Part shown: positions 10,937 through 64,000 of the stretch, in pieces
How positions within the stretch are numbered: the stretch's first letter is position 1
Layout of the letters: each line of letters starts with the position of its first letter
IMG/VR virus record: IMGVR_UViG_3300010885_080481
DNA length: 64,000 bases
Source: a virus
Lineage: Duplodnaviria; Caudoviricetes
Strand: one strand, 5' to 3'
Program-made: the position numbers and the translations under genes
Notes under the pieces: generated by a model
The model's database searches: none
Seen by the model: only the letters and a program-made list of their open reading frames with translations
Told to the model about the DNA's origin: nothing

Positions 10937-10959
10937 TATTTTCATCTTAAGAGGAAAGC

Positions 10960-11241: not shown

Positions 11242-11250
11242 AGGTAGGTT

Positions 11251-15771: not shown

Positions 15772-15789
15772 TATTAAAGGGCAAATAAA

Positions 15790-16086: not shown

Positions 16087-16092
16087 GTCTGA

Positions 16093-19000: not shown

Positions 19001-19620
19001 TAGCTGCAGAATTGAATCTACCTGAAGGCATTAGCAACGATGAAAAAAAGTTAAAAAGTTTATTCAACGTGTTTTCTTTTAAAGAAGGAGGGTCACCTTC
19101 TTTTGAAAAAGTGAAACGACAGATTGGGCGATTCGTTCCCACTATTACGATAGGTTCCAATGGATCGATGGTAGAAAGTTCCAACTATTCGACGGGCAAT
19201 GACGCTTTATTGAGCACGATCATGATGCTCAGAAATTCTCAAGCTGCTCCAAATCCTGCGCAACCAAATGGTTCCGGTGTGGGAGACTTGCCTCTTCGCA
19301 TCATCCCTGGCTCTTTAACGATCAATTCGTTGGGATGTCCTTTGGTCGAGTACATGCAACAATTCTTTGTTGACTTGGGTACAGGCACCACGGCTGATAA
19401 CCTTTACAACGTGACTGGATTGACTCATACATTCACTCCTGGGAAATTTAGCACGCAGATAAAGTTTACGTTCGCGGATGCTTATGGTCGCTACGAGAGC
19501 GCGCAGACCTTCATCGACGGCGTCACGGCTGAACTTACAAAGATGAGCAACGATCTTGAAAAATCTAAAAAAGCCGAAGAAGACAAAATTAAACAAAGAG
19601 GCGGTAAAAAAGTCGGGTAA
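16093..19620 (+). CDS. Baseplate hub protein (late control D / gp27-like, 1175 aa)
   Basis: Follows the LysM gene. Has a LTYGW motif and a C-terminal GCPLV..QQFFVDLGTG...NLYNVTGLTHTF.PGKFST. Confidence 0.65.
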   Translation: MANNQKSIIDFYRDFETTGIQGARIISRSFNGKLQNPDVTFEKIFKLLYPDSAALGSAEEMWNVLKELGTAPPASQQGNTSPDNETAKEITKLLRIYHTSFKGDAPLSSEIRKFYVEGGRPSAYKAYNASDGGYLIVDNPLFAIGNAAKSSSSDSSTNGPSLTYILLDTPNIDIKLRNADKASAFLNYVPSIIASQLQPYLDVEFNLSRNTTKETSTDKRLSSMSQLKFLMGPEAIQPGSANDKIHEASLKRSKSPAPAAEATRKDLIIQQLEGQYAAWQLAKKQYEDTVKTTVKNADGKLGLGKAAYPVDPPTDPNNAAAVAAYIKSIDSGNNVPNAPKIDGKEVLTAGIELFTMPQTLLNMDPQSSAGRFQPVINPTMPFGAITNLTIDIRPSVGVMSFKTATLTLKIFDRSRLVEIADFLNPKLYQAVTLWLTYGWRAPIFPLQSRPGLANDIKIYADFINESMLRREAYGVRNVSVSTEPNGVTTVTLSLFTRGGAELLEVKDSRSGDFDKIREKIGADLEEIKTLTKKFGLQTFADTGKELRGSQVISAALAGDIIAVDTKELSNIASSIKKILEEKGFVEEAGRLESLLKQVYGKSSADGKSLLDDRLEGAARGLTRSRFYALAKDESKQSDVWTIPNEISDANQTNRGKFADESDTPRPNFLQTLRAADVARKDQDLSKTSKDQSGNQFFGGFRSLSFGRLFASYFFDVARGLTDSNVIDDVQVIFYNLNSLAGPVANLNIAEFPIEMAPLEEAYAKKVTEQKGENMSFTTLLEVIKDSQFSRMQHAAYGFQSYFVPDKKTGKLVQDERNSKLLSEAVLKNYGLPGAFSLPAIEFYIETSFANSKSKLEVDLLESIDFSRRAPTGNLTNNVKKIMRIHVYDKSAIPHQAATQILSSPNGYIELDSEVYRALQTQNRNSASGTADASKKLQQLIDSLKTKIKNINALPPNPTDSNADFETFKKIAAELNLPEGISNDEKKLKSLFNVFSFKEGGSPSFEKVKRQIGRFVPTITIGSNGSMVESSNYSTGNDALLSTIMMLRNSQAAPNPAQPNGSGVGDLPLRIIPGSLTINSLGCPLVEYMQQFFVDLGTGTTADNLYNVTGLTHTFTPGKFSTQIKFTFADAYGRYESAQTFIDGVTAELTKMSNDLEKSKKAEEDKIKQRGGKKVG

Positions 19621-22324: not shown

Positions 22325-23164
22325 ATGGCAATTGATCTAGAAGCAATTAAGCGTCGTGTTGCAGAGCTCAGTGGCGTGAGGAAGACGTCGTCCGTTCAGA
22401 TGTGGAAGCCACAAATTGGAGAATATAAGATTCGCTGTCTGCCTTGGAAGAATTCTCCTGAAGGCCAGCCTTTTGCAGAGAGGTGGTTTTACTACATCGG
22501 AGAGAATGCAGGCCTCCTTGCTCCAAATCAGTTTGGAAAGCCAGATCCAATCAACGATCTGATCCGTAAGCTGTACAGCAGCGGCAAGCCTGACGATCGA
22601 GTTCTTGCAAAGAAGCTTGCGCCTAAGATGCGTTGTTATGCCCCCGTCATCGTCCGCGGTGAGGAGGATAAAGGTGTGCAGGTCTGGGCTTTCGGTAAGA
22701 TCGTCTACCAACGTATGCTTGGTTTCTTCCTCGATGAGGAGGTCGGCGATATTCTAGATCCAAATCAAGGATTTGATTTGAAAGTGACGATCTCAAAAGC
22801 CCCCGGTAAACAGTTCAATGATACGATGGTGGATCCTGCTCGACGACCTTCAAAGCTTCATGAGGATCAAAAAACCATGGCAACTTGGCTGGAGAATATT
22901 CCAAACATCGATGACATGTATCGTCTAAAGTCCACTCAAGAGATTGAAGCTGTTCTCAACAATTGGCTCAACGGTGGTGCTACTGATGACACACCAACAG
23001 AGACAACCCGTGGTCCAGCCACAGCAGATGCTCTTGATGACTTGGTTGCTGAAGTAAAAGCCTCATCGCCAGACAAACCAAAGAAAGTAAAGAAAGCTGA
23101 TGATGACTCTCCAAAGAAACAATCATTAGATGATGCGTTCGCAGACCTGATGGGCGACGAGTGA
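22325..23164 (+). CDS. Single-stranded DNA-binding protein (T4 gp32-like)
   Basis: MAIDLEAIKRR start, IRCLP, WFYY, DPI, PVIVRGEE, WAFGK, GFDL and an acidic tail LDDAFADLMGDE. Confidence 0.8.
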   Translation: MAIDLEAIKRRVAELSGVRKTSSVQMWKPQIGEYKIRCLPWKNSPEGQPFAERWFYYIGENAGLLAPNQFGKPDPINDLIRKLYSSGKPDDRVLAKKLAPKMRCYAPVIVRGEEDKGVQVWAFGKIVYQRMLGFFLDEEVGDILDPNQGFDLKVTISKAPGKQFNDTMVDPARRPSKLHEDQKTMATWLENIPNIDDMYRLKSTQEIEAVLNNWLNGGATDDTPTETTRGPATADALDDLVAEVKASSPDKPKKVKKADDDSPKKQSLDDAFADLMGDE

Positions 23165-23171
23165 TTTAACT

Positions 23172-23213
23172 GTTCAAGCGCCGGGGAATTTTAATTTTCC
23201 CCGGCGCTTGAAC
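23172..23213. terminator. 17-bp perfect inverted repeat between ssb and recA
   Basis: GTTCAAGCGCCGGGGAA, 8 nt, TTCCCCGGCGCTTGAAC. There is no U-tract, so terminator function is uncertain. Confidence 0.5.
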
Positions 23214-23242
23214 TATTTAGTGAGTTAAAAGGATAATACACT

Positions 23243-24430
23243 ATGGCAAAAAGAGAGAAGTCAGAAGAAGTTGAGACCGTGACTAAAAAGTCTGAGGTTG
23301 ATAATATGATGAAAGATCTCATTTCATCTATCAACAAGGAATTTGGTCAACGCATTGCGTACAATCTATCAGAGATGGATGCACCTACGGTCGTTAAAAG
23401 GTGGATCGACACAGGGTCGATTCAACTTAACTATGCGATCCGCAACGCAATGGGAGGAGGGTATCCAGAAGGTCGAATCATAGAAATCGCAGGATTACCT
23501 TCATCAGGTAAATCGCACCTTGCATATCACGCGGCTTCAGTGGCCCAACGTATGGGTGGTCTTGTTGTCTATATTGACACAGAAAATGCAACTCCTGTTG
23601 CGAAGTTGGCGGACATGGGAATCGATGTTCGTAAGAGATTTGTTTATTGCGATTCTCACTGTACAGAGGAGGTCTTCTCCATTATTGAATCTACAATCAC
23701 CAAGGCGAAGCAGGTGCTCGATAAGAACATTCCTATTCTTGTCATCTGGGACTCTGTCGCAGCAACTTCTCCTAAGGCCGAGCTCGACGGTGATTATGAT
23801 CAAAACTCGATTGGTCTACAGGCCCGCGCTATTTCTAAGGGAATGCGTAAGATCACAGGCGTCATTGGACAAAACAACGTGACGCTACTCTGCATCAATC
23901 AAATTCGTGATGCTATCGGTGTGATGCATGGTGATCCTACAACGACGCCTGGCGGTCGTGCAATCCCATTCCATTCTTCTGTTAGAATTCGTTTAGGTAG
24001 TGGCAATCAAGTGAAAGACAAGAATGGTAATCCTATTGGAATCCATACCACTGTCACTCTTAAGAAGAATAAGGTTGCTGCCCCTTTTCGCAAATGTGAG
24101 TTTGATATCATCTTTGGCAAGGGTATCGTAGAGGATGAATATCTTTTTGATGAAGTTCGTTCACATTGCAAAGCCAATGGCCCTGTCAAGCGTGATGGTT
24201 TTGAGATCAATGTCAGCGGCGAAGGTGCGTGGAAAGAGCTTTCAGTGGTTAATGCAAAGACAGGCGAAGTTGTGGTAGAGAAGAAGTTCTACAAGTCTGA
24301 GTTTGGGGATATGCTCAAGGACGAGAAATATTCGAGTTATCTCTTGACGGCTATTGACTCTGCCCTTATAACAACTGGTGGCGAACCTTCGGGCGAGGGA
24401 GACGGTGAAGGAGGAATGTCTGATGAGTGA
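23243..24430 (+). CDS. recA: RecA/UvsX recombinase
   Basis: Walker A GLPSSGKS, YIDTE, IWDSVAA, INQIR, TTPGGRAIPF and KNKVAAPF. Confidence 0.92.
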   Translation: MAKREKSEEVETVTKKSEVDNMMKDLISSINKEFGQRIAYNLSEMDAPTVVKRWIDTGSIQLNYAIRNAMGGGYPEGRIIEIAGLPSSGKSHLAYHAASVAQRMGGLVVYIDTENATPVAKLADMGIDVRKRFVYCDSHCTEEVFSIIESTITKAKQVLDKNIPILVIWDSVAATSPKAELDGDYDQNSIGLQARAISKGMRKITGVIGQNNVTLLCINQIRDAIGVMHGDPTTTPGGRAIPFHSSVRIRLGSGNQVKDKNGNPIGIHTTVTLKKNKVAAPFRKCEFDIIFGKGIVEDEYLFDEVRSHCKANGPVKRDGFEINVSGEGAWKELSVVNAKTGEVVVEKKFYKSEFGDMLKDEKYSSYLLTAIDSALITTGGEPSGEGDGEGGMSDE

Positions 24431-24863
24431 TATATTTTGGATTAGATGCGAAGTGGATGACAATGACCTTGTGCCAAAGTATCAAACACAAGGATCTGCG
24501 GGGTGTGACATATATGCTAATGAGTACCTAACGATCAAGCCTGGACGAAGGGCTATGGTGGCCACTGGATTAAAGATCGAACTGCCTCCTGGATTTGAAG
24601 CGCAAGTCAGACCTAGGTCTGGGTTAGCGGCAAAGCATGGTATCACGGTATTAAACACGCCCGGTACTGTTGATGAAGACTACAGAGGAGAGATTAAGGT
24701 CATTTTATTAAACACAGGTGACGAAGAATTTATTGTCAATAAAGGTGATAGGATTGCACAGTTGGTATTTTCTCGAGTTTTTCGTGGGATATTCCAACCA
24801 ACCAATAGCTTGTCTTCAACAACTCGTGGTGGTGGTGGATTCGGTTCAACAGGCAAAACATGA
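24423..24863 (+). CDS. dut: Trimeric dUTPase
   Basis: GSAGCDI, PRSGLA, GTVDEDYRGE, RIAQLV and RGGGGFGSTG. Start moved to the ATG at 24423. Confidence 0.95.
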   Translation: MSDIFWIRCEVDDNDLVPKYQTQGSAGCDIYANEYLTIKPGRRAMVATGLKIELPPGFEAQVRPRSGLAAKHGITVLNTPGTVDEDYRGEIKVILLNTGDEEFIVNKGDRIAQLVFSRVFRGIFQPTNSLSSTTRGGGGFGSTGKT

Positions 24864-25843
24864 GCTCAGATCGACCCATCTTGATAGTGGATGGTGCAAA
24901 TCTTTTTATTAGAAGCTGGTCAGCCTTTCCATCTATGTCTTCTCATGGATATCAGATGGGAGGCTGTGTTGGCTTTTTGAAAACTTTGAAGAGAATTGTT
25001 ACAGAAATTCAACCAAAGTTCGTGGTGGTTGCCTGGGAAGGTGGAGGATCTTCTCGACGTAGAAGCATATATCCTGATTACAAGTTAGGCCGCCGTCCGG
25101 AAAAGTTGAATAGATTTTATGGGGATGACATTCCTGAATCTGAAGAAAACAGAAAGCATCAGATGCTTTCTCTTCTTGACATGTTAAAATCAGTTCCAGT
25201 ATGTCAAGTTTACGTGCCTGACTGCGAAGGTGATGACATCATCGCTTTTTTGTGCAAAGGATATTTTAGGCAGGCTGAAAAAATCATAGTTTCATCCGAT
25301 AAAGACATGTATCAGCTTTTAAATGAAAAGACAAAGATCTATTCTTTACACAAGAAGTTGGTTTTGTCAAAAGATGACATATTCGATGAGTTTAGGATTA
25401 AAACCCATAATTTCGCCATGGCAAAATCAATCTGCGGAGACCCTGGAGATAACATCCCAGGTATAAAAGGATTGGGATTTAAAACTGTATCAAAAAAGAT
25501 ACCGTTCTTAGGAGGAGACTCCGAGGTCTTGATTGATGAAGTCATCTCTTTTTGTCACTCTAGAATGCCTGAATCGTCTATTTACAAACGGATTGTAGAG
25601 AATGAGAGTGTGATTCGTAGGAACTGGAAATTGATCTATCTTGACGGCAGCATGTTGTCTGCCACACAGATTTCTAAGGTGCAACATGTTATAGATACAT
25701 TTGCACCACACACGAATAGGATTGCTTTAATCAAGTCGCTCGTCAAAGAAGGCATAGGCGATTTTAACGTAGAAGATTTTTTTTACGCCTTTAGGTGTAT
25801 CGATCATGCTCCTTATGCTGGCGGAGAACAAAATGCAGGATAA
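24860..25843 (+). CDS. 5'-3' exonuclease / flap endonuclease (T4 RNase H or PolI N-domain-like)
   Basis: LIVDGANL, EGGGS..RR.IYPDYK..R, EGDDII, SSDKDMYQL and GDPGDNIPGIKGLG. Confidence 0.9.
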   Translation: MSSDRPILIVDGANLFIRSWSAFPSMSSHGYQMGGCVGFLKTLKRIVTEIQPKFVVVAWEGGGSSRRRSIYPDYKLGRRPEKLNRFYGDDIPESEENRKHQMLSLLDMLKSVPVCQVYVPDCEGDDIIAFLCKGYFRQAEKIIVSSDKDMYQLLNEKTKIYSLHKKLVLSKDDIFDEFRIKTHNFAMAKSICGDPGDNIPGIKGLGFKTVSKKIPFLGGDSEVLIDEVISFCHSRMPESSIYKRIVENESVIRRNWKLIYLDGSMLSATQISKVQHVIDTFAPHTNRIALIKSLVKEGIGDFNVEDFFYAFRCIDHAPYAGGEQNAG

Positions 25844-27275
25844 CGAAAATAAAACTGGTTCTAAGTTAACTTTTGGTTCGTATGGTAAATCTTTTCAAGA
25901 GAAAATCATGCAAGCTCTCTTGACAGATTCAAAGTTTGCAGAACAGATGATGGAAGTGTTCGATACATCTTACTTTGAATTGAAGTATCTACAGTTTCTA
26001 GCGGATCGATACTTCTCTTACTCTAAAAAATACAAGGTATTTCCAACGTTACAACTTCTTGTGACGATTATACGGGAAGACCTAAAAGTAGGTACGGATG
26101 TGATTCTTCGAGATCAAATCATTGAATACCTGCAGCGCATGAAAGCGAATCCAGATCCTGGCGATTTGCAATTTGTTCGTGAAAAGTCTCTTGACTTTTG
26201 CAGAAAGCAAGCTCTCAAGGCCGCCCTTGAAAATGCCGTTGATCAAATGGCGGCAGACAAATATGAATCTATCGTTGAATCGATAAAGAAAGCTGTTCAA
26301 GTTGGAACAGCACCATCTGTCGGTCACGACTTCTTTAATGAAATGGATGCAAGGTTCACTCGTCTAAAACGTGACACAATCCCGACAGGTGTTCCTGAAC
26401 TTGATAAGAAAGAAATTCTACAAGGTGGTTCTGGTAAAGGTGAACTACTTTGCGTTGTCGGCGGTAGCGGATCTGGTAAGTCTCACTGGCTTACGATGAT
26501 TGGTGCAAATGCTCTAAAGGCAGGTAAGAATGTTCTTCATTATACCTTCGAGCTATCTGAAACAGCTGTCGGTATTCGCTACGATTCTAACCTCTGCGAC
26601 ATGGATTCCAATGAAGTCATGGATCACAAGGATGAGATCATTGAAAAATACAAAGGTATGACTCTCGGCCGACTCTACATTAAAGAATATCCCACAAACA
26701 CGGCATCCATTTTTACAATTCGTTCTCACATCGAACGGCTTGATCTAAAAGGATTCAAACCGGACATCATTATCATCGACTACGCGGATATCATGAGGTC
26801 AACGCGACAATTTGATTCGCTTCGACACGAATTGAAATTAGTCTATGAAGAGCTTCGAGGCCTTGCTATGGAAATTGGCGTTCCTATCTGGACAGCATCT
26901 CAGTCTAACAAAGAAGGTGCCAATAGCGAGATCATTGATATGACAAATATGTCAGAGGCCTATGGAAAGGCAATGATCTGCGACTTCATCATCTCTGTCT
27001 CTAGAAGAGCGCATGAGAAGGCTTCAGGGTGGGGTAGACTCTTCGTCGCAAAGAATCGAGCAGGTAGAGATGGATTAGTTTTCCCTGCTAAGATAAATAC
27101 TGCACAAAGCAAGTTTGAGATCACTGGCGCCGCTGATGCGCCGAATGAGGTTGCAGCAACGGATGAAGCAGAACAGAAAAAAGCGCTTAGGGCAAAGTGG
27201 AAAGAACTAAAGAATGAATTCAGCTCAAGCTCATCAAATAAAAGCTCTTCTTCATTTGAAACTGTAACAACTTAA
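25833..27275 (+). CDS. dnaB: Replicative DnaB/gp41-like helicase
   Basis: Walker A GGSGSGKS, YTFEL, IIIDYAD, WTASQ and KNRAG. Start at 25833 has a GGAG SD. Confidence 0.88.
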   Translation: MQDNENKTGSKLTFGSYGKSFQEKIMQALLTDSKFAEQMMEVFDTSYFELKYLQFLADRYFSYSKKYKVFPTLQLLVTIIREDLKVGTDVILRDQIIEYLQRMKANPDPGDLQFVREKSLDFCRKQALKAALENAVDQMAADKYESIVESIKKAVQVGTAPSVGHDFFNEMDARFTRLKRDTIPTGVPELDKKEILQGGSGKGELLCVVGGSGSGKSHWLTMIGANALKAGKNVLHYTFELSETAVGIRYDSNLCDMDSNEVMDHKDEIIEKYKGMTLGRLYIKEYPTNTASIFTIRSHIERLDLKGFKPDIIIIDYADIMRSTRQFDSLRHELKLVYEELRGLAMEIGVPIWTASQSNKEGANSEIIDMTNMSEAYGKAMICDFIISVSRRAHEKASGWGRLFVAKNRAGRDGLVFPAKINTAQSKFEITGAADAPNEVAATDEAEQKKALRAKWKELKNEFSSSSSNKSSSSFETVTT

Positions 27276-27323
27276 AAAATTTGAAGTATAGTTATGCACC
27301 TAAATTATGAGTGGAGACAAACA

Positions 27324-29909
27324 ATGACTTACACGTATAACGAGGCTTACGAGGCATCTTTAGCATATTTTAAAGGCGACGAGCTCGCAGCTTCTGTCTT
27401 TGTATCAAAGTATGCGCTACGTGATTCCGAAGGTAATATCTTGGAAAAAACTCCGACGGACATGCATTTACGTCTCACTCGAGAGTTTGCTAGGATTGAA
27501 TCCAAGTATCTTAATCCTTTATCAGACAAGGAAATTTTTTGCCTCCTTGCTGACGTGGATCATCTCGATGTCACAAAAAAGTCAACAATGACTTTGGAAC
27601 AGCTAGCTGCAGAATCCCGTGGCATGGGTGCAGTTGTTCCTCAAGGTTCTCCCATGTCAGCGATGGGTAATCCATATAAACTGCAATCCTTGTCCAATTG
27701 CTTCGTCATTGCCTCGCCGCAGGATTCATACGGTGGCATCCTCTTCACAGACCAGGAACAGGCACAGATCATGAAGCGCCGAGGCGGAGTTGGTTTCGAC
27801 GTTTCAACTATTCGTCCAAAAGGTCTTGCTACGGCCAATGCTGCGGGGACGACAGACGGCATTGGCGTCTTCATGGAAAGATTCTCTAATACTTGTCGTG
27901 AGGTTGCTCAAGGAGGTCGGCGCGGCGCACTGATGCTCACTATATCAGTGATGCATCCAGAGGTGGAAACTTTCATCAATATCAAACGAGATCTTAAGAA
28001 GGTCACAGGAGCAAACATCTCCATCCGCCTCACTGATGAGTTCATGAACGCCGTGAAGGATGATACGAACTTCACACTTCGATGGCCAGTCGAGTCTACG
28101 GTTGAAAACGCTAAGGTCACGAAGGTTGTTAAGGCTCGCGAACTATGGAATCAGGTCATTGACGCAGCTTGGACGTCAGCAGAACCAGGTCTTCTCTTCT
28201 GGGACACGGTCAAGAAGATGACTCCTACTGAGGCATATGCTTCAAAAGGTTACGCTAACGTTTCAACAAATCCATGTGCGGAACTCATCCTCAGTCCGTA
28301 CGATTCCTGCCGTCTTCTTTTGATCAATCTCACAAAATTTGTCAAGGATGCTTACCTTCCCACTGCTTCTTTTGATTTTGAGAAGTTCAAGAAGGTTTCA
28401 GCGAAGGCACAAAAGTTAATGGACGATCTCGTTGACCTTGAGATTGAGGCCGTTGACGCAATCTTAAGAAAGATTGAGGCTGATCCTGAGAGTGAAGAGG
28501 TCAAGCAACATGAGGTCAATCTCTGGCAAAAAATTAAAAAGGCGGCCTCAGGCGCCCGTCGCACAGGCTTAGGTATCACTGGTATTGGCGATGCTCTGGC
28601 TTCTGTTGGCGTGACTTATGGATCTGAGGATTCAGTCAACAAAACAGAAGATATCTATAAAACGTTAGCTCTTTCTGCTTACAGATCATCTGTCGATATG
28701 GCAAGAGATAGAGGTTCGTTCCCTGTTTACGAATGGGAACTAGAGAATCAAAGTCCATTTTTGAAACAAATGATGCAAGCCGATGAATCATTATTTGCAG
28801 ACTGGAAAAAGTATGGTCGTCGTAATATTGCGTTAACGACCACCGCACCTGCAGGTTCCGTATCATGCCTCACGCAGACAACAAGCGGTATTGAGCCTGC
28901 TTACCTCCTCTCTTATACACGCCGCAAGAAGATCAATCCTAATGATACTGCTTCACGAGTTGACTTTATAGATCAGCTAGGCGATAAGTGGCAAGAGTAT
29001 AAGGTCTATCACCACGGCTTCAAGAAGTGGATGGACGTCACTGGCAAAACTGATGAACAGATTACTGAGTCTGCTTATTGGAAGGCCACAAGCAATGATG
29101 TTGATTGGCCTATGTCAGTCAAACTTCAGGCTGCTGCGCAAAGATGGATCTGCCACGCTATCTCTAAGACGTGTAATCTTCCTAACGACGTAACCCATGA
29201 AGTTGTTGCCGAAGTATACATGAAGGCTTGGGAAGCAGGTTGCAAAGGTTTTACTGTCTATCGAGACGGTTGCAGAACAGGCGTCCTTGTCCAGGATACT
29301 CCTAAAGAAACCAAACAGGTAGATTCCGATAGCCAACCAGAAACATTAGTAGAAAACCACGCACCAAAGAGACCGAAGGAATTACCATGTGATATTCATA
29401 GAATTAATGTAAAAGGTTCTGAAGGTCAGGAATCATATTTGGTTTTGGTTGGCAGCCTTGATGGAAAGCCTTATGAGATCTTCTGCGGTCGCTCATCTCA
29501 TGTTGAGGTACCAAAGAAAGCAAAAACTGGAATTCTAATCAAGAATGGCAAGAAAGACGGCGTAGCCACTTACAATCTTCAAATACCCGTAGGCGATGAT
29601 GATCAACTTTTGTTTAAAGACATTGTTGAGCTCTTTGCTAATCCAAATCACGGTGCATTCACTCGTACCTTATCATTGGGATTACGCCACGGAGTACCTG
29701 TACAATACATTGTTGAACAGTTGCAAAAAGACAAATACAGCGATATGCAATCTTTCTCTAGAGTTCTTGCACGAGTTTTGAAGAGCTACATACCTGATGG
29801 CGTCAAGGCTACTTCTTCTGATAAGACCTGCACACAATGCTCGTCTGATGCTCTAGTGTATAAAGAAGGGTGCGTTACATGTTCATCCTGCGGATGGAGC
29901 AAATGTTGA
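27324..29909 (+). CDS. nrdJ: Class II (adenosylcobalamin-dependent) ribonucleotide reductase
   Basis: SNCFV, RRGGVG, GGRRGALM, NPCAE, GLGITG, TTAPAGS, TSGIEP and YRDGCR, with a C-terminal TSCPD-like domain and Zn ribbon. No beta subunit seen. Confidence 0.85.
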   Translation: MTYTYNEAYEASLAYFKGDELAASVFVSKYALRDSEGNILEKTPTDMHLRLTREFARIESKYLNPLSDKEIFCLLADVDHLDVTKKSTMTLEQLAAESRGMGAVVPQGSPMSAMGNPYKLQSLSNCFVIASPQDSYGGILFTDQEQAQIMKRRGGVGFDVSTIRPKGLATANAAGTTDGIGVFMERFSNTCREVAQGGRRGALMLTISVMHPEVETFINIKRDLKKVTGANISIRLTDEFMNAVKDDTNFTLRWPVESTVENAKVTKVVKARELWNQVIDAAWTSAEPGLLFWDTVKKMTPTEAYASKGYANVSTNPCAELILSPYDSCRLLLINLTKFVKDAYLPTASFDFEKFKKVSAKAQKLMDDLVDLEIEAVDAILRKIEADPESEEVKQHEVNLWQKIKKAASGARRTGLGITGIGDALASVGVTYGSEDSVNKTEDIYKTLALSAYRSSVDMARDRGSFPVYEWELENQSPFLKQMMQADESLFADWKKYGRRNIALTTTAPAGSVSCLTQTTSGIEPAYLLSYTRRKKINPNDTASRVDFIDQLGDKWQEYKVYHHGFKKWMDVTGKTDEQITESAYWKATSNDVDWPMSVKLQAAAQRWICHAISKTCNLPNDVTHEVVAEVYMKAWEAGCKGFTVYRDGCRTGVLVQDTPKETKQVDSDSQPETLVENHAPKRPKELPCDIHRINVKGSEGQESYLVLVGSLDGKPYEIFCGRSSHVEVPKKAKTGILIKNGKKDGVATYNLQIPVGDDDQLLFKDIVELFANPNHGAFTRTLSLGLRHGVPVQYIVEQLQKDKYSDMQSFSRVLARVLKSYIPDGVKATSSDKTCTQCSSDALVYKEGCVTCSSCGWSKC

Positions 29910-51260: not shown

Positions 51261-51554
51261 ATGAAGAAATTATCAGAAAAAGAAATTATCCGTTTAATGC
51301 GAGAAGAATGGATTAAAAAAGTCAATGGATTGTTGTCTGAAAAAGCAGAAAAAAATTCAGACAACTTAAAAATGCTGGCAAGAGTGAACGGAAAAGAAAA
51401 GTTAGTGATCTCTCCAGATCTAAAAGTCGAAAAGGACAATTTTCTTTATACTGTGGTCAGCGTAAATGAAAAAGAAGTTACTTTAAGAAAACCTTCTGGC
51501 GAAGAATTCACTATCACGTCAAAAGAGTTTGAAGAAGAATTTGAAAGAGAATGA
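51261..51554 (+). CDS. Hypothetical protein with leader KEIIRLMREE
   Basis: 97 aa with a beta-rich C-terminal half. Confidence 0.65.
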   Translation: MKKLSEKEIIRLMREEWIKKVNGLLSEKAEKNSDNLKMLARVNGKEKLVISPDLKVEKDNFLYTVVSVNEKEVTLRKPSGEEFTITSKEFEEEFERE

Positions 51555-51567
51555 TGGAGTTTGCATT

Positions 51568-52308
51568 ATGAACAAAAACAATAATGATAAAATTGAATTA
51601 GATAACATCTTAAAAAGCGTGGTCAAGAACTCCATCGCCAAGCACGCTCCTGTTTCGCAACTTCAAGAAGTTGCTGATGATTCAAATTCTTTAAAGGAAG
51701 CATACGTAGCTGAACCTAAAGTTTTTAAACAGGTAACAGAGTTTGTTACCCAAAAAACCAAAAGTGCTCATTATGATCTTTACAAGGGTTATACTGAATC
51801 TTTGACTAAAGTATCTGCCAAGCTAGATTCTGTCAATAGACCAGATGCAAATCCTAGAAGTTCTGAATACGCTTCATTGAAAAAAGATGAAGTTTATAAT
51901 CTAAATGCAACATGGTTACATGAATTATATTTTGCTAACTGTTTTGACCCACATTCAGAAATTACTATGGATTCCATGTCTTATCTCAGGCTTGAGAGAG
52001 ACTTCGGCACATTCGAAGATTGGCAACGAGATTTTATTGCCTGTGCATCAGCTGCAGGAGTTGGTTGGGCTGTTTGTGGATATCACATGTTCTTACAACG
52101 GTATGTTAACACGTTCGTCGGTCTGCACGATCGGAATGTGATGCTAGGGTTGTATCCAATCATGGTTGTAGACATGTGGGAACATGCTCATAGAGATTAT
52201 CTTAATGATAAAAAGAGCTACATAGTTTCTCAAATGAGAGAAATTAATTGGAATGTAGTAGAAGAGAGAGTAGTTAAAGCAGAACAGATAGCGCAGGCGT
52301 TGAAATGA
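51568..52308 (+). CDS. Fe/Mn superoxide dismutase-like protein with N-terminal extension
   Basis: HYDLYKGY, LHELYFAN, GWAV and DMWEHAH. Confidence 0.75.
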   Translation: MNKNNNDKIELDNILKSVVKNSIAKHAPVSQLQEVADDSNSLKEAYVAEPKVFKQVTEFVTQKTKSAHYDLYKGYTESLTKVSAKLDSVNRPDANPRSSEYASLKKDEVYNLNATWLHELYFANCFDPHSEITMDSMSYLRLERDFGTFEDWQRDFIACASAAGVGWAVCGYHMFLQRYVNTFVGLHDRNVMLGLYPIMVVDMWEHAHRDYLNDKKSYIVSQMREINWNVVEERVVKAEQIAQALK

Positions 52309-55728: not shown

Positions 55729-56490
55729 ATGTTCGTACAATCTGCTCCTGTTGTTGCAGCTGTTCAGTTCGATCCAAAGATTCTTGAAGTTCATGAAAAT
55801 TTGGCGACAGCTCGTTCTCTTGCTTTTGAAGCTGCAGCAAAAGGAGCAGCTGTCGTTGTTTTACCTGAACTGTGTATAAGCGGATATACTTTAAGGGACT
55901 ATAAAGAAGCCGCTGAATGTTCTCAAACAAAGAGCGGGTATCAGACGGAAGCTTTTCTTACAATCGCAAAAAATTGTAATTGTCATATTATTTTTGGGTA
56001 TGTTGAATTGTTAGAAGGAAAGCTTTATAATTCTGCTGCTGTTGTAGGCCCTTCTGGATTAGTAGCTAATTACCAAAAACACAATTTGTGGGCTAATGAT
56101 TACTTGTGGGCTGAACCTTCAGAGTCTGTAAATCCTGTTGTCACAACTCGCGCAGGTCGATTAGGAGCTTTGATTTGTAGAGATTCTCTTAACAATTATA
56201 GAGAATCATATAAATTCTACAAGCCGGATTTCCGATTTTATAGGCAAGGTTCAGTAGATACGATAGCATTATTAACGAACTGGTCAGGTCAAATTACCCA
56301 CCCAGATAATTCTTGGGTAGAGCTTGCAGAACAGACTAACTCTAACGTTATTGTTTCTAGCAGAGTTGGTAAAGAGAGAAATTTGAAGTTTAATGGAGGA
56401 TCTACGATAATAGATAAAAAGTTGAATGTTTGGACTAACGGATCTTCTTTCACCGAAGCCGCTGTCGTTGGAGGAACGGTTATTCTATGA
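55729..56490 (+). CDS. Carbon-nitrogen hydrolase (nitrilase/amidase family)
   Basis: Glu-Lys-Cys triad in LPEL, YQKHNL and LICRD. Confidence 0.88.
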   Translation: MFVQSAPVVAAVQFDPKILEVHENLATARSLAFEAAAKGAAVVVLPELCISGYTLRDYKEAAECSQTKSGYQTEAFLTIAKNCNCHIIFGYVELLEGKLYNSAAVVGPSGLVANYQKHNLWANDYLWAEPSESVNPVVTTRAGRLGALICRDSLNNYRESYKFYKPDFRFYRQGSVDTIALLTNWSGQITHPDNSWVELAEQTNSNVIVSSRVGKERNLKFNGGSTIIDKKLNVWTNGSSFTEAAVVGGTVIL

Positions 56491-56861
56491 AATTAACCGA
56501 TATTCATAAAAACTTTATTAAAACTTCTTCAAGATCTATTGTAGAAAATTTCTTGCCCATAAAGGCAGTCAAACCTGCAGAAATACCCGTCTTTGCAATT
56601 GAAAGATGGAAGAACGAAAATGGACTTTTGACAAAAAAGTTTATTTTTGAAAACCTTGACGACAGAAATAGGTTTATAAATTCTATCTTGAATTATGAGA
56701 TGAGCAGCGGACATCACGCTAATATCACGATTGAAAAAAATAATGTAATTTTACGTTTGATTACTAAAGACGTAGATAAGGTTACTGAACTTGATAAAGA
56801 ATATAGTTCTTACGCGGATACAATTCGTAAAGACATAGCGTATAATTCAAAAGATGAATGA
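56487..56861 (+). CDS. Pterin-4-alpha-carbinolamine dehydratase-like protein
   Basis: W....GLLTKKFIF, HHANITI and VTELD. Confidence 0.7.
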   Translation: MKLTDIHKNFIKTSSRSIVENFLPIKAVKPAEIPVFAIERWKNENGLLTKKFIFENLDDRNRFINSILNYEMSSGHHANITIEKNNVILRLITKDVDKVTELDKEYSSYADTIRKDIAYNSKDE

Positions 56862-57926: not shown

Positions 57927-58142
57927 TTGCTCATGGAAAACGTTAGAAACATCTTGCTTCCAAATGGAAGCACACTCGAAGTTACTATAAAACCTGGATT
58001 TCTTGAAAAGGTTGCTGCTCAATTTAATCTGAACGAAACCAAAAACGTGTCAAACGAGCATATACGCATGTATATATTTGGAGCATTCAAAAATGCTGTA
58101 GATAAGGTTGAAAATGTCGGATTCGGAAACAATTTTACTTGA
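57927..58142 (+). CDS. Hypothetical protein
   Basis: 71-aa ORF that tiles between its neighbours. Confidence 0.5.
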   Translation: MLMENVRNILLPNGSTLEVTIKPGFLEKVAAQFNLNETKNVSNEHIRMYIFGAFKNAVDKVENVGFGNNFT

Positions 58143-58383
58143 ATATGTTAAACTAATTTTAGAAAAGAAAATTAGAGAAGCTGACATTTCTGATGGAAAA
58201 AAAGCGAAGTGGGGCTCTAAAAAGCATATCGCGGATCTTCAACGTCGTCTTAAGGATGCAGAGTATTGGCGTGACAAGCAGAAAAAAGGATCAGAGAAAA
58301 GAGCATACTACAGAGGCATAGTGAATGACATAAAAAGACAGTTGAAAAATGCCCTTAGAGATGCTGAAAATTTCGAAGGCTGA
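58114..58383 (+). CDS. Hypothetical protein with leader ILLEYVKLILE
   Basis: Basic C-terminal part. Confidence 0.6.
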   Translation: MSDSETILLEYVKLILEKKIREADISDGKKAKWGSKKHIADLQRRLKDAEYWRDKQKKGSEKRAYYRGIVNDIKRQLKNALRDAENFEG

Positions 58384-58393
58384 AAAGAATAAC

Positions 58394-58429
58394 TTCAAGA
58401 GATCTAGCTCATAGTTTAGATCTCTTGAA
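58394..58429. terminator. 13-bp inverted repeat, possible terminator
   Basis: TTCAAGAGATCTA, 10 nt, TAGATCTCTTGAA. Confidence 0.45.
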
Positions 58430-58491
58430 TAGCATTTATATAATGTTTGATTCCTATATTTATTTTTTCAATAGGATAATTTTATTCATTC

Positions 58492-58911
58492 ATGCTGCCC
58501 TTAATATTTTCCTGTGGTGCCGTCGTTTACAAAAAAGGGCCCCACGGCTCACAAATTTTGTTAATAAAACAATTCGCTAAAGACGATGCGTGGGGAATTC
58601 CCAAGGGACACATGGAAAGTGGCGAGACTTACACGGAAACCGCAATACGAGAAGTCAAAGAAGAAACGGGAATTGACATTAAAATAATCACACAATTACC
58701 CCACGTGTCAATTATTAGAAAAAAGAGCAAAAAAATTGTGGTGCCTTTTCTGGCGATTCAAACATGTGATAACGTACCAAGGAGCGACAGCAGTGAAGCG
58801 TCAGAAGTGATAGCAGCTCAATGGTTTAACACAGAAGGCTTACCTGAAATATATCATTATCAGCAACCCATCATAGACGCCGCGCTGATCCTACTGGAAA
58901 TGAGGAAGTGA
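58492..58911 (+). CDS. NUDIX hydrolase
   Basis: Nudix box GHMESGETYTETAIREVKEETG. Confidence 0.9.
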   Translation: MLPLIFSCGAVVYKKGPHGSQILLIKQFAKDDAWGIPKGHMESGETYTETAIREVKEETGIDIKIITQLPHVSIIRKKSKKIVVPFLAIQTCDNVPRSDSSEASEVIAAQWFNTEGLPEIYHYQQPIIDAALILLEMRK

Positions 58912-59154
58912 TTGACAGAAGAAGAAGCAATAGATGAATCTCTAAACTTTGTGGCAAGATATACCTCCAGTGTATCCGATTGGATTACTATAAAAAAAGA
59001 ACTTCTTAAGTCTTTGCCCCCTCAATATAGGAAACGTTTTTCGACAAGAGATCCTGTCACTAAAAAACAATCGATGAACGATTTTGAAATATCCTTGTCT
59101 AAAAAATGGGAAAGCATAACAGGAAAAAAGTTGATATTTAATGGCCATGAATAA
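58912..59154 (+). CDS. Hypothetical protein
   Basis: 80 aa with a TTG start next to the NUDIX stop. Confidence 0.5.
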   Translation: MTEEEAIDESLNFVARYTSSVSDWITIKKELLKSLPPQYRKRFSTRDPVTKKQSMNDFEISLSKKWESITGKKLIFNGHE

Positions 59155-60295
59155 CTTTGAAAAAGAGTCGAAATTATTAAGAGAATATGTTAGAAGAATC
59201 ATAAAAGAAGATTATGATTCTTCTTTTTACGATTCTTCTTATGGCGGATCAGGGAGCTCGTTTGGTTCAGGCGTGGGAAAATCCGTTGGTGGATCTAGAA
59301 CTCTTGCTGGAGCTGCAGTTGATCCCATTTTACGTGTGTTCAAAGTCGCTATAGGCAAATCTAAGGAAATTGGGGCAAGCCTAAAACAATTAGGTAAAGT
59401 AACCGCTGAAGCAATAAAAAGTGTCGCTTCAGGCGGGGAGTATGAAGGTCAATATAAAAAAATTCATGATGAATTTAAGAAAGATATCTCAAAGGTACGA
59501 AAAGAATATGGCAAACACTACGCTGAAGCGTGGGACGTTTTAGACAAAAGCGGGGTTACGACGCTGGCCTTTTTATATAATCCAGCTCTTTTCGTTGCTA
59601 AAAAAGCCGTGGTAGATCATCCTCGTATGGCCCTCGGCGCCATGATGGCAATGGCTACTGGTGGTTGGGCCGGTGCGGCGGTCGGAACCAAACTTGGTCT
59701 TGGCGCAGCCGCTGTAAAAACGGCCAAGGGTGTCGGTGCTGGCCTGGGCGTTGCAGGAGTAGCCGCAGCCAAAAAGATTTATGGTAATCGAAACAAAAAA
59801 GATGATGATGACCGTGAGGGCGAAATTGATGTAAAAAGGTTGCTTTCTCTAAGATCTGGTGGCGGCGATGAAGACAAGAGCTTATCAAATAACGTCAAGC
59901 CTGAATTACGTCAACACATGCAGCAGATAAAATCTCTTGTAAATAATCATTTCAATGAAGTAAGAGAAAAATTGACGAAGTTAAAAGGTATAAAAACACT
60001 GAAAGATCTAGGCGTGTCTGATGATAAAATAAGACAGCTGGAAGAATCTCTTAGTAGCTTGCCAGAAGAACAAAAAAAGAAAAAACTGGACGAGATTTTG
60101 GAGTCGTTAAAACAGAAAACTTTCGTGAATGTAATAAGAGCTTTGAAGCAAGAAAGAGATGGCATGCTAAGAAGTATGCTAAGTGCAGGAATTCCAGAAA
60201 ACGTCATTAAAGAAGAAGGTTCTATTTACGATCGATACAATAAAGAAATTTCTGAGATTGCAAGAATTTTTGGCATTGAAGCAGAAAACATCTAA
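59141..60295 (+). CDS. Hypothetical protein with leader LLREYVRRIIKED and a central Gly/Ala hydrophobic segment
   Basis: 384 aa; MALGAMMAMATGGWAGAAVG...GLGVAGVAAA; ATATTTAA overlaps the start. Confidence 0.7.
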   Translation: MAMNNFEKESKLLREYVRRIIKEDYDSSFYDSSYGGSGSSFGSGVGKSVGGSRTLAGAAVDPILRVFKVAIGKSKEIGASLKQLGKVTAEAIKSVASGGEYEGQYKKIHDEFKKDISKVRKEYGKHYAEAWDVLDKSGVTTLAFLYNPALFVAKKAVVDHPRMALGAMMAMATGGWAGAAVGTKLGLGAAAVKTAKGVGAGLGVAGVAAAKKIYGNRNKKDDDDREGEIDVKRLLSLRSGGGDEDKSLSNNVKPELRQHMQQIKSLVNNHFNEVREKLTKLKGIKTLKDLGVSDDKIRQLEESLSSLPEEQKKKKLDEILESLKQKTFVNVIRALKQERDGMLRSMLSAGIPENVIKEEGSIYDRYNKEISEIARIFGIEAENI

Positions 60296-60321
60296 ACATA
60301 ATGTTCGTTTTGCAGTATACT
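60293..60321 (+). promoter_or_regulatory. Sigma70-like promoter
   Basis: TAAACA, 17 nt, TATACT, 7 nt before the ATG at 60329. Confidence 0.5.
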
Positions 60322-60328
60322 TGGAGAC

Positions 60329-60619
60329 ATGCCTAAGCGTAATGCAAAAAATTACAATGTCGAGACGATGCAGCCTGATGAGATCAATACCTTGAGGGCT
60401 TTGGTTAAAGAATTTATTAACAAGATCGAGTCAATTGACAATGAAATCGAGCTGTTGAAGACAGATCGCAAAGAGGTCATCGAGGAGTACACTGAAAAAC
60501 TCGATATGAAAACTCTGCAAGCGGCTCTACGCGTTGTGAAAATTCAGCAAGGGGTTGAACATAAAGATACGTATGACCTTTTTCTTGAAGCGTTGACAGG
60601 CGTCCAACCCAGCCCATGA
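60329..60619 (+). CDS. DsbA/GapR-like (DUF2312-like) DNA-binding protein
   Basis: EFINKIESIDNEIELLK.DRKEVIEEY...LD.KTL..A.RV.K. Confidence 0.6.
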   Translation: MPKRNAKNYNVETMQPDEINTLRALVKEFINKIESIDNEIELLKTDRKEVIEEYTEKLDMKTLQAALRVVKIQQGVEHKDTYDLFLEALTGVQPSP

Positions 60620-60984
60620 AAGGAAAAAACATGGAAAATAAACACTCTGCTCTTCTAAAACCCAAAAAGACGTTTACATTAAAACTTTCTCTACCTGAGC
60701 TAATACATCTTAGAGATCTTTTTAGCATATCTTTACCCGTCGACTTAAAGACAACAGTCAGTCAATCTCTTGCGACAGGTCAAGGTAGACAGATCATCGA
60801 AACAAAACTCTGGAATAAACTCGTGTCCTTATGCAGAGAAGGAGAGATTCCTTTAAATGAAGAGGCTCCTGATTTTATCATTACGGTAACAGCACCTCCT
60901 GAGCTAGGAGTTTTTGAAGTTGCGACAGATTACGTTCAGCAAGAAGAGCAAGCTGAAGAAGAAGATGATGCGGATGACGAGTAA
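60616..60984 (+). CDS. Hypothetical protein
   Basis: 122 aa with an acidic tail. Confidence 0.6.
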   Translation: MKGKNMENKHSALLKPKKTFTLKLSLPELIHLRDLFSISLPVDLKTTVSQSLATGQGRQIIETKLWNKLVSLCREGEIPLNEEAPDFIITVTAPPELGVFEVATDYVQQEEQAEEEDDADDE

Positions 60985-60989
60985 AAGTC

Positions 60990-61409
60990 ATGCAAAAAAC
61001 AACGTATAAAGTAGGACAAATAATATACGTTTTGACATCTAAAGAGACCAAGATATATCCAGTTCAAGTAGTCGAAGAAATTATAAAGCGAAGTATAACT
61101 GGGGAATCGGTTTCTTACATTGTTAAGGCCGGCAAAGGAAATAAGCTCGTACCTATTTCTGATATTCAGGGAGAGTTATTCGAAGACGTAGAATCTCTTC
61201 GAGAAGTTCTCACTAAAAGAATCATCAACACAATCAATAACATAGTCAATGAATCAATTGAAAAAGCTTCTGAGTGGTATGAGCAACCAGAAGTTCATTC
61301 ACCTATCATCGAAAGTCCACCATTTGAACCTGACGACAAACAAGGCAGCATAGTCGTGAAGTTATCGGATGGAAAAATAGCGAATGTAAAACTGCCCAAC
61401 ATTTCATGA
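60990..61409 (+). CDS. Hypothetical protein
   Basis: 139 aa with an SH3-like beta N-terminus (YKVGQIIYV). Confidence 0.6.
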   Translation: MQKTTYKVGQIIYVLTSKETKIYPVQVVEEIIKRSITGESVSYIVKAGKGNKLVPISDIQGELFEDVESLREVLTKRIINTINNIVNESIEKASEWYEQPEVHSPIIESPPFEPDDKQGSIVVKLSDGKIANVKLPNIS

Positions 61410-61425
61410 TGCATAAAGGTACCAC

Positions 61426-62664
61426 ATGAACGATAATCGATTTCAAGGAATAGTTCGTAACTACACTGAGCAAGACGTAAGAAAGCTTCAGAACACGTTA
61501 AAGGTAGAACATACCTTGGCTAATCATGGAGCGCAGAAGCTTTGGAAGCTTATTAATTCCGAGCCATACGTTGCAGCCTTAGGAGCTCTCACGGGCAATC
61601 AGGCGGTGCAACAGGTCAAGGCAGGTCTCAAGGCTATCTATTTATCAGGATGGCAGGTAGCCGCCGACGCCAACCTTGCCGGTGAGATGTATCCTGATCA
61701 GAGTCTCTATCCCGTCAACAGCGTTCCGTCTGTCGTTAAGCGTATCAACAATGCGCTTCTACGTTCAGATCAGATCGATAACTCTGAAGGTAAGACCGGT
61801 ACCGACTGGTTTGCACCAATTGTTGCCGATGCCGAGGCTGGTTTTGGTGGACCACTCAATGCATTTGAACTTACCAAGGCTCTAATTGAAGCCGGAGCCT
61901 CAGGCGTCCATTTTGAGGATCAACTAGCCTCTGAAAAGAAATGTGGCCACATGGGAGGCAAGGTGCTCGTCCCAACTTCACAGTTCATCCGTACGTTGAC
62001 TGCAGCACGTCTGGCCGCGGATGTTATGGATGTTCCAACCGTCATTATCGCCAGGACGGACGCAGATTCAGCTAGCCTCATTACCAGCGACATCGATCCA
62101 TACGACAGAGACTACATCCTCGATGGCGACAGGACCCCTGAAGGATTCCATAGGCTGTGCCGAACAGGGCTTGAACGTTCGGTGGCTCGCGGTCTAGCAT
62201 ATGCTCCCTATGCAGACATGCTCTGGATGGAGACTTCAACCCCCGACCTGGAGCAGGCCAAGCTCTTCGCCGAGGCCATTCACAAGAAGTTTCCAGGAAA
62301 ACCCCTAGCCTACAATTGCTCACCCTCATTCAACTGGAAGAAGAACCTCGATGACTCAACCATCGCTAAGTTCCAACGAGAGCTCGCCGCCATGGGCTAT
62401 AAGTTCCAGTTCGTCACCCTTGCCGGCTTCCACTCGCTCAACCACTCCATGTACCAGTTGGCCCATGGTTATAAGGATCGAGGCATGGCAGCCTACTCTG
62501 AACTACAACAGGCTGAGTTTGCAGCTGAGAAGATCGGTTACACGGCCACGAAACACCAGCGAGAGGTCGGCACCGGTTACTTTGATGCAGTCTCTCAGGT
62601 TATTTCTGCCGGTAATTCATCCACGTTGGCGCTTCATGGATCGACTGAAGAAGAGCAATTTTAA
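61426..62664 (+). CDS. aceA: Isocitrate lyase
   Basis: [33 protein letters not shown], catalytic KKCGH (C173), [18 protein letters not shown] and KHQREVG.GYFD. Confidence 0.97.
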
Positions 62665-62710
62665 CTAAAAAAATCGTAGTTGATTTTTATTTATAGTCAG
62701 GAGGCGTATT

Positions 62711-62944
62711 ATGCGCGACCTGACACCAAGTGAATTAGGTGTTATGCTTTTCAATATTAAGGGAGATCTTGAGATTGTAGCTAACATTTTATCTAAGTGG
62801 AGAATGAGCGGACTAGGTCTAAATGGCATGGTCCCTCTTTCTATTATTGCTGCTGAAACAAAAACGAATACAACAATATCTGAAGTTGAAGATTTAATTC
62901 AGATATTAGCGAAGGTATCGAACAATCTGATTGATAGATATTGA
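62711..62944 (+). CDS. Hypothetical protein
   Basis: 77 aa with a strong AGGAGG SD. Confidence 0.6.
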   Translation: MRDLTPSELGVMLFNIKGDLEIVANILSKWRMSGLGLNGMVPLSIIAAETKTNTTISEVEDLIQILAKVSNNLIDRY

Positions 62945-62950
62945 CGTAAT

Positions 62951-63259
62951 ATGTCAACATCGATACTTCGCAAATTTATAAAAAATGTAATTTTAGAAGC
63001 AAAGATTGAAGCATCACCAGAGTACATGAAAAAGGAAATGGTGATGCAATCAATCCAAAGAGATCTTGCTTCTTTAGTTAGATTAGGGAAAATAAAAACA
63101 AAAGCTCAGATGGATGAATGGTTAGAATTCTATCTAGCACATCCTCCTGAAGGAGCAGAACCATCTGCGGTTAAGCTGGCAACTCAAACGTTAAAATCTA
63201 TACCAGATCCAAAGGTGTTCCTAGCACCAGGAGCAGTAGCCTCTGATCGTAAGAGATAA
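62951..63259 (+). CDS. Hypothetical protein with leader ILRKFIKNVILE
   Basis: 102 aa. Confidence 0.6.
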   Translation: MSTSILRKFIKNVILEAKIEASPEYMKKEMVMQSIQRDLASLVRLGKIKTKAQMDEWLEFYLAHPPEGAEPSAVKLATQTLKSIPDPKVFLAPGAVASDRKR

Positions 63260-63260
63260 A

Positions 63261-63443
63261 ATGAAGCTCGTTAAAGGAATTGATTATTTTTTGGAAAATG
63301 ACCGAATAGTTTTCACTCGTGAGTTTTTGTTAAAACGAGGGTATTGTTGCAATTCTCGTTGCAGAAATTGTCCGTATACTGAAAAAAAAGTGAAAAATGA
63401 CTCTGCGGAAGAAGTCACTGTGCAAATTCCTAAAAATTCCTGA
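63261..63443 (+). CDS. Small Cys-rich protein (DUF5522-like)
   Basis: DYFLENDRIVFT..FLLKRGYCC..RCRNCPY. Confidence 0.7.
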   Translation: MKLVKGIDYFLENDRIVFTREFLLKRGYCCNSRCRNCPYTEKKVKNDSAEEVTVQIPKNS

Positions 63444-63455
63444 TACCATGTTGGT

Positions 63456-64000
63456 ATGGGTATTGGCAAGATCGACCTGTCTGAAGCTAGTTCTATCGCA
63501 AGTTCTGTCTTGAAATACATTCAACCTGCCTTGACCAAAGGCGAAGTTGCTGGATCAATCCGCCGCCATAAAGAAATTGTCGGCGATGTTGAGATCGTTG
63601 CGATGAGCGATAACAGAGAGCTTCTTGTCAAACTCCTGGCCGACGTTGGTCAGCACATCAAGCCTGGTGTGCCGGGCCTAGTTCCTTGGGCGCCGAAGGT
63701 CGATGCCAAGTATTTTCGAGTTCGTTTGAATGAAGGCATGAATCTCGATCTCTTCATGGCATCTCCTGAGAATTGGGGAGGGCTTTTGTTGATGCGAACT
63801 GGTTCTGGCGCCGGACTAGATGGTAATTCTTTCAACGGTTTCACACCAGGTATTTTTTCTCGTTGGAAGAAGCTTTCAGGTGGCGGCCGCATGACGAACT
63901 GCATGCCAACGATGCCCACTGGCGAACAACTGTGGATTCCGGAAGAGCAGGACTTTTTTGATCTTCTCGAGATGGATTTCGTTCCTCCTGTCGAACGAGT
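63456..64000 (+). CDS. Minimal family X DNA polymerase (3' truncated; not in ORF track)
   Basis: My translation: MGIGKIDL...EVAGSIRRHKEIVGDVEIV...NLDLF...WGGLLLMRTGS...EEQDFFDLLEMDFVPPVER. Confidence 0.85.
   Translation, partial: MGIGKIDLSEASSIASSVLKYIQPALTKGEVAGSIRRHKEIVGDVEIVAMSDNRELLVKLLADVGQHIKPGVPGLVPWAPKVDAKYFRVRLNEGMNLDLFMASPENWGGLLLMRTGSGAGLDGNSFNGFTPGIFSRWKKLSGGGRMTNCMPTMPTGEQLWIPEEQDFFDLLEMDFVPPVER

Follow-up and report, generated by a model that had tools for sequence, protein, structure and literature searches.

A probably functional, virus-maintained isocitrate lyase encoded by an uncultured T4-like jumbo phage

The window, by which we mean the whole stretch of 64,000 nucleotides of viral DNA that was analysed, carries an isocitrate lyase (ICL) gene close to its downstream end (Table 1). 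The open reading frame runs from an ATG to a TAA and is the longest reading at this position; the three shorter ORFs nested within it are taken to be by-products. Elsewhere, the window encodes two tail-sheath paralogues, a gp19-like tube protein and a T4 baseplate protein, together with gp32, UvsX, a 5'–3' exonuclease, DnaB, the RNR large subunit and a DnaE-type polymerase, with nearly all of the genes on the plus strand. The exact ICL protein is also found, in a protein database, on a record whose longest contig is 206,273 bp, and the window is DNA of an uncultured T4-like jumbo phage of ~206 kb. The small ORFs that flank the ICL gene either have no Pfam family or fall into virus-only clusters, which, together with the structural and replication genes listed above, bears out the description of the surroundings in the initial annotation as phage-type hypothetical genes. 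No tRNAs were found in the window. The two tail-sheath paralogues are adjacent (2–1141 and 1344–4343), and this duplication is also present in three related records (G002, G005 and G007); beyond them, positions 6539–19620 contain three ORFs of exceptional length (1465, 1506 and 1175 aa), none of which matches a Pfam or PHROG family.

Table 1. Features at and around the ICL gene (window coordinates; L002–L005 are the four IMG/VR contigs that have the same gene order around ICL)
Feature	Coordinates	Strand	Evidence and remarks
Fe/Mn superoxide dismutase C-domain protein	51529–52308		Host-like, stress/redox-type
Nitrilase-superfamily CN-hydrolase	55729–56490		63–66% conserved in L002, L003 and L005
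Pterin-4a-carbinolamine dehydratase	56487–56861		Host-like gene
NUDIX hydrolase	58492–58911		Host-like gene
GapR-like DNA-binding protein, 96 aa; heads the conserved block	60329–60619	+	Pfam GapR_DNA-bd 19.8 bits, below the 22.6 cut-off
Hypothetical protein, 122 aa; in the conserved block	60616–60984	+	No family match; 48–55% identical and syntenic in L002–L005
Hypothetical protein, 139 aa; ends 16 nt before ICL	60990–61409	+	No Pfam or PHROG match; 33–39% identical in L002–L005
AceA-type ICL, short phage form, 412 aa	61426–62664	+	NF011645, Pfam ICL, PDB 6lrp, KKCGH, dN/dS
Three small ORFs, 77, 102 and 60 aa	62711–63443	+	Each in only one or two of L002–L005
Conserved anchor gene, truncated where the window stops	63456–63998	+	70–82% identical in L002–L005, downstream of ICL

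The ICL gene ends a block that is headed by the GapR-like protein. The latter is 72–84% identical in the four related contigs, a level of conservation well above that of the small genes beside it, and it may be a nucleoid-type regulator. For the protein that immediately precedes ICL, the nearest Atlas clusters are 100% viral and all hypothetical. On the downstream side, two of the three small ORFs (62711–62944 and 62951–63259) gave no family match in Pfam or PHROG, and the anchor gene shows weak PolX-like matches to the Pfam DNA_pol_B_palm and thumb domains (E ~0.007, below cut-off). The intergenic gap of 16 nt before the ICL start is followed by one of 46 nt between the ICL stop and the next ORF, and short gaps on the 5' side of ICL are also seen in all four relatives; judged by this spacing, ICL is probably co-transcribed with the small upstream genes. 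Promoter and terminator scans around ICL gave results at or below chance level, TATAAATA was not found on the plus strand of the window, and the nearest TGC-N3-GCA (PhaR-type) box ends at 49670, some 12 kb upstream of ICL. Over the 12 kb upstream of ICL, host-like genes are mixed among small virus-only ORFs.

Against the NCBIfam 'isocitrate lyase' equivalog NF011645, the phage protein scores 756.4 bits (cut-off 562), and it also exceeds the cut-offs of TIGR01346 (572.6; cut-off 275.9) and of Pfam ICL (PF00463; 335.7 bits, cut-off 26); none of the PHROG families matches it. Alignments with solved ICL structures are end-to-end (6lrp, 681 bits; 7cmx, 664; 1f61, 598; 1igw, 569) and reach the last residue. 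The characteristic motifs, located by script, are SGW (74–76), YPDQS (89–93), DAEAGFGG (135–142), HFEDQ (162–166), ARTDA (209–213) and NCSPSFNW (297–304), with the C-terminal end complete through EEEQF at residue 412, and the catalytic loop signature K-[KR]-C-G-H, which includes the active-site cysteine, is present as KKCGH at residues 171–175. The C-terminal segment that closes the active site is kept, as are the putative metal- and substrate-contacting positions, assigned from the 1F8I and 1IGW structures. Alignment with 80 bacterial ICLs defines 167 columns of at least 97% invariance; the phage protein retains 165 of them, and the two that are altered (G23N and F230Y) both lie outside the listed motif blocks. 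Neither the motifs, nor the invariant columns, nor the C-terminal end gave any sign of an inactive enzyme. The initial claim of a 412-residue AceA with all of its catalytic motifs is thereby confirmed, and the protein is an intact and probably functional isocitrate lyase, its enzymatic activity being predicted from the sequence.

The phage enzyme does not have the full bacterial N-terminal segment, which is not part of the catalytic machinery: residue 4 of the phage protein pairs with residue 18 of 1igw and with residue 22 of 1f61, amounting to a deficit of 14 and 18 residues relative to the Escherichia coli and Mycobacterium tuberculosis enzymes, respectively. All ICLs of the phage clades described below are 408–418 aa in length, most of them with an in-frame stop 1–11 codons upstream, and the bacterial homologues extend further at the N-terminus by a median of ~15 residues. 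Because a few Verrucomicrobiota ICLs are nearly as short, the shortness is typical of, rather than unique to, the phage clades.

The gene order comprising 60329–61409, ICL and the gene at 63456 is common to four IMG/VR contigs, in which ICL is 86–90% identical to that of the window and the syntenic neighbours are 33–84% identical. Among the ICLs of the window and of L002–L008, which are 77–90% identical at the protein level, synonymous sites are saturated in most pairs with dN ~0.1, and dN/dS is 0.037–0.069 where dS is estimable; the gene is under strong purifying selection and is maintained in the virus. As noted at the outset, ICL is richer in C-ending codons than its neighbours: its GC, GC3 and C3 values are 0.513, 0.535 and 0.315, whereas the genes of the window average 0.403, 0.358 and 0.172, respectively (z = 2.2–2.5; ~2.2 for GC3), placing it second of 59 genes, behind the sheath-like gene 107–1141. 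That gene has a GC3 of 0.565, and the tube and DnaE genes have values of 0.509 and 0.489, respectively; moreover, across syntenic ICL orthologues with 84–90% protein identity, GC3 varies from 0.23 to 0.55, largely tracking that of their own genomes. Since sheath, tube and DnaE share the bias and the orthologues follow their genomes, it is not evidence of a recent import, and a reading of the C-ending codons as a sign of foreign origin finds no support; instead, they would be a signature of the conserved, probably well-expressed genes of this phage.

Phylogenies were computed with FastTree for 176 rows (local SH-like support) and with IQ-TREE under LG+C20 for 86 rows (SH-aLRT). In both, the window ICL falls, with a support of 99, into a clade composed of viral or metagenome rows only, with no bacterial genome inside. 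More than 120 ICL protein clusters, from metagenomes and with contigs of up to 371 kb, are 80–99% identical to it, and the best homologues in bacterial genomes are 70–76% identical: the top bacterial species genome is a Polyangiaceae MAG (76%), after which come other Myxococcota, Chloroflexota and Verrucomicrobiota. The sister of the window clade (SH-aLRT 92, not starred) combines several marine phage ICL clades with Myxococcota and Bdellovibrionota, and the sister group is not settled among Myxococcota, Bdellovibrionota and the other phage clades; the phylogeny that had been proposed as a means of finding the donor has, therefore, delivered a viral clade and no donor. Two sequences with bacterial labels, from an Ectothiorhodospiraceae MAG contig (L112) and a 'Chlamydiae bacterium' MAG (protein P0083), fall inside the phage ICL clades; the former has small ORFs strung along one strand, as is usual in phages, and both are probably phage contigs misbinned into bacterial MAGs. 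Additionally, a 40-row clade, whose rows are all IMG/VR-labelled and putatively viral, nests among Burkholderiales. A 251-kb IMG/VR record flagged as a provirus (L013/G004), which has a terminase and a sheath, encodes a long ICL (425 aa, GC3 0.64) close to that of Oxalobacteraceae, and this represents either a separate, more recent capture or host flank.

The short type of ICL is found in other phage backgrounds too. In seven marine contigs (L012, L020, L025, L026, L036, L048 and L052), ICL comes right after a gp32–UvsX–exonuclease–DnaB–RNR module that is 38–61% identical to window positions 22325–29909, and three parent records (G002, G005 and G007, behind L005, L020 and L032, respectively) have sheath and DnaE proteins that are 43–49% and 44–67% identical to those of the window; judged by this gene order, ICL of the same type occupies a different locus in related marine phages. 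A 361-kb record (behind L007) encodes an ICL that is 84% identical to the window's, although the window sheath has no match in it and its DnaE is just 32% identical; Pfam models do, however, recognize a tail sheath domain in this record, and a terminase weakly. The same pattern holds for a 252-kb record (behind L028), with a short-type ICL that is 67% identical. In L007, a YeaH(DUF444)–SpoVR(YcgB)–PrkA trio, a bacterial starvation-response module, lies at 13276–17951, 2 kb downstream of ICL. Among deposited phages, megablast with positions 58000–64000 gave no match, and no cultured phage is close to that of the window, the DnaE and sheath proteins being at most 30% and 34% identical, respectively.

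These observations bear on two other accounts of how the gene came to lie where it does. The arrangement of genes around ICL recurs in four independent IMG/VR contigs and is, therefore, neither an assembly chimera nor host DNA joined to a phage contig: such an artefact is hinted at by the local rise in GC alone (0.513 in ICL versus 0.375 in its flanks), whereas the same junction genes on both sides in all four contigs, the tight intergenic gaps, the shared strand of ICL and all of its neighbours, and the near-identical ICL proteins from other assemblies (including one, 99% identical, for which the longest recorded contig is 92 kb) effectively refute it, and we give it almost no credence. A recent capture from the current host, which would make the gene a marker of that host and its codon usage a foreign signature, could appeal to the raised GC3 and to the best bacterial matches (Polyangiaceae and Myxococcota, 73–76%). 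It is nevertheless very improbable given a clade of viral and metagenome sequences only, protein clusters that outrank every bacterial species genome, the saturated dS and wide range of GC3 in the syntenic orthologues, the high GC3 common to sheath, tube and DnaE genes, and a sister group that is not settled. The best explanation is that ICL has been passed down in a lineage of uncultured T4-like jumbo phages, as a member of an old phage-type family. With phage genes on both sides, conservation of the locus in related phages (one of which, G002, has a terminase and a sheath) and purifying selection, the initial reading of ICL as an auxiliary metabolic gene of the phage stands. The companion suggestion, that it would be a good host marker, is not supported: since its clade is restricted to viruses and metagenomes and its best bacterial match is only 76% identical, ICL reports phage ancestry and not the present host, and a very similar enzyme occurs in the 361-kb phage with a different sheath and a distant DnaE. 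With no cultured relative exceeding 34% identity in either DnaE or sheath, we infer no host.

The missing N-terminal segment is absent from the alignment used for the trees. When 29 short-type rows, a group named after the first tree was seen, were constrained together for an AU test, the resulting tree was 11.65 log-likelihood units better than the one obtained by the unconstrained quick search (p-AU 0.68). The test thus does not reject a common origin of the short phage type and would be compatible with one, without proving it. It is conceivable, although we hold this tentatively and think it somewhat unlikely, that all of the short phage ICLs, namely those of the window clade, the marine clades and the sheath-distinct large phages, derive from one ancient capture that moves between distant huge phages and is kept without malate synthase. 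Were this true, a single virus-resident ICL lineage without malate synthase would point to a stand-alone role in virocells, which could be the supply of glyoxylate or succinate, or the throttling of NADH and reactive oxygen species (ROS), in place of the textbook carbon-saving shunt.

The original observation that the window has no malate synthase is upheld: none was found when every ORF of at least 384 aa was scanned with Pfam or PHROGs. Malate synthase (PF01274) is also absent from the records behind L003, L005, L007 and L013 (G001–G004) and from Phage C48C1; the HpcH/CitE lyase (PF03328) is absent from G001, G002, G003, G005 and G007; and the class-V aminotransferase (PF00266) is absent from the records behind L003, L005, L007, L020 and L032, with positive controls in each case. 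The related records are 12–97% complete, and the most complete of them, behind L007, was included in both partner-enzyme sets. Neither the window ORFs nor the related records, therefore, contain a complete glyoxylate shunt module (aceBA or aceBAK). The genome search for aceB that had been recommended is in this way negative for the window and the related records, and the rest of the window genome is judged by analogy: as in these relatives, at their 12–97% completeness, no partner enzyme would be expected elsewhere in the 206 kb.

ICL acts at the metabolic fork at which carbon is either burnt or conserved. The phage enzyme would cleave host isocitrate to succinate and glyoxylate, and carbon would leave the TCA cycle ahead of the two CO2-releasing, NAD(P)H-producing steps. 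The phage would provide only the branch-point, flux-controlling enzyme; since neither malate synthase nor a malyl-CoA/CitE-type lyase was found in the window or in the related records searched, completing the shunt must fall to the host, whose malate synthase would do so, if the shunt runs at all. The presumed benefit would be carbon saving and a supply of C4 compounds for phage biosynthesis. We favour, with moderate confidence, this reading of a functional, phage-owned ICL of an old short lineage that diverts isocitrate and leaves the host to complete the shunt where it runs; the activity and the co-transcription, and likewise the reliance on malate synthase of the host and the gain to the phage, are predictions.

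The phage might instead want a single product or a by-pass rather than half a shunt, with ICL working alone: glyoxylate could be turned into glycine and one-carbon units for purines, succinate could feed respiration, or the omission of two dehydrogenase steps could mean less NADH and ROS and a lower demand for iron. The lack of malate synthase and of CitE/malyl-CoA-type lyase in the window and in five related records would fit such a role, as would the 76 of 98 ICL-bearing huge phages that have no malate synthase according to a recent preprint (bioRxiv 10.1101/2025.02.27.640493). The superoxide dismutase-like gene and other stress/redox-type genes in the region would also be in keeping with it. 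However, the class-V glyoxylate aminotransferase was not found in the relatives and no purine genes adjoin the window ICL. Many heterotrophic bacteria with ICL also have malate synthase, and completion by the host is, therefore, the simpler reading; although the sequence would be compatible with either and does not discriminate between a shunt completed by host malate synthase and a stand-alone ICL, we regard the latter as unlikely. Less plausible by far is a main role as a methylisocitrate lyase, which would detoxify 2-methylisocitrate derived from propionate. The two activities belong to one superfamily, and M. tuberculosis ICL1 can act as a methylisocitrate lyase; the match of the window protein to prpB is weak, however (TIGR02317, 95 bits; cut-off 354), whereas its ICL equivalog score is far above the cut-off, and neither prpC nor prpD was seen among the scanned window ORFs. 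Returning to the favoured reading, diversion of isocitrate with completion by the host, the phage ICL would very probably re-route the central carbon flow of the infected cell. Since ICL is placed at a carbon branch point, the phage copy offers a handle on how large phages rewire cells in carbon-poor waters.

How common such genes are in phages depends on where one looks. Tblastn of the window ICL against 50,697 deposited phage records gave nine matches, of which one, in Phage C48C1, is genuine; the other eight fall on contigs of bacteria or on very short records that lack annotation (64–67% identical) and were taken to be host DNA. To this extent, the initial view that ICL is uncommon in phages is justified; it does not extend to huge phages and ocean viromes. 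According to the preprint cited above (bioRxiv 10.1101/2025.02.27.640493), 98 of 7,295 huge phages carry ICL (98 genes), 22 of them with malate synthase and none of these 22 from freshwater, such that ICL without malate synthase is the pattern in freshwater huge phages, and the authors interpret ICL as an auxiliary metabolic gene of the glyoxylate cycle. Moreover, aceA and aceB reads have been reported from Pacific Ocean viromes (Hurwitz et al. 2013, PMC4053976), and an aceBA operon from the complete 179-kb T4-like marine viral genome TARA_ERS478052_N000008 (Nishimura et al. 2017, PMC5332604).

The window phage resembles the published huge phages in its size class (~200 kb or more) and, as in most of them, its ICL is not accompanied by malate synthase; its genome may be among the 98. 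The available part of that preprint describes neither a short N-terminus, nor a phage-only clade, nor spread across lineages, nor selection (bioRxiv 10.1101/2025.02.27.640493). TARA_ERS478052_N000008 is likewise an uncultured T4-like phage with ICL as a carbon-metabolism gene, but there malate synthase adjoins ICL, whereas the window ICL stands alone among small virus-only genes. Phage C48C1 (L001; OQ984149.1, 156 kb, filed under Kyanoviridae) also encodes a short form (417 aa, 59.8% identical) without malate synthase, which, as in the window, lies downstream of a DnaB-like helicase region; the two phages are, however, distant, with DnaB the sole match (27%), and the C48C1 ICL is on a long branch, where its placement is uncertain. 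Its gene (7992–9233) is annotated as 'hypothetical protein'. Relative to the bacterial AceA/ICL1 enzymes (1IGW, 1F61/1F8I, 6LRP, 7CMX and 3I4E), the window ICL has the same KKCGH loop, motif blocks and C-terminal end, but it is virus-encoded, has no aceB or aceK neighbours, lacks the 14–18 N-terminal residues, and has a one-residue insertion (Cys245) and Met268 in place of the usual Cys. Phage ICLs have, then, already been published, and the window ICL opens no new class of system; it is a well-supported example rather than a discovery. It warns against host prediction from such genes, and what it adds to the published counts is an old, virus-maintained short lineage that is under strong purifying selection and from which the second shunt enzyme is absent.
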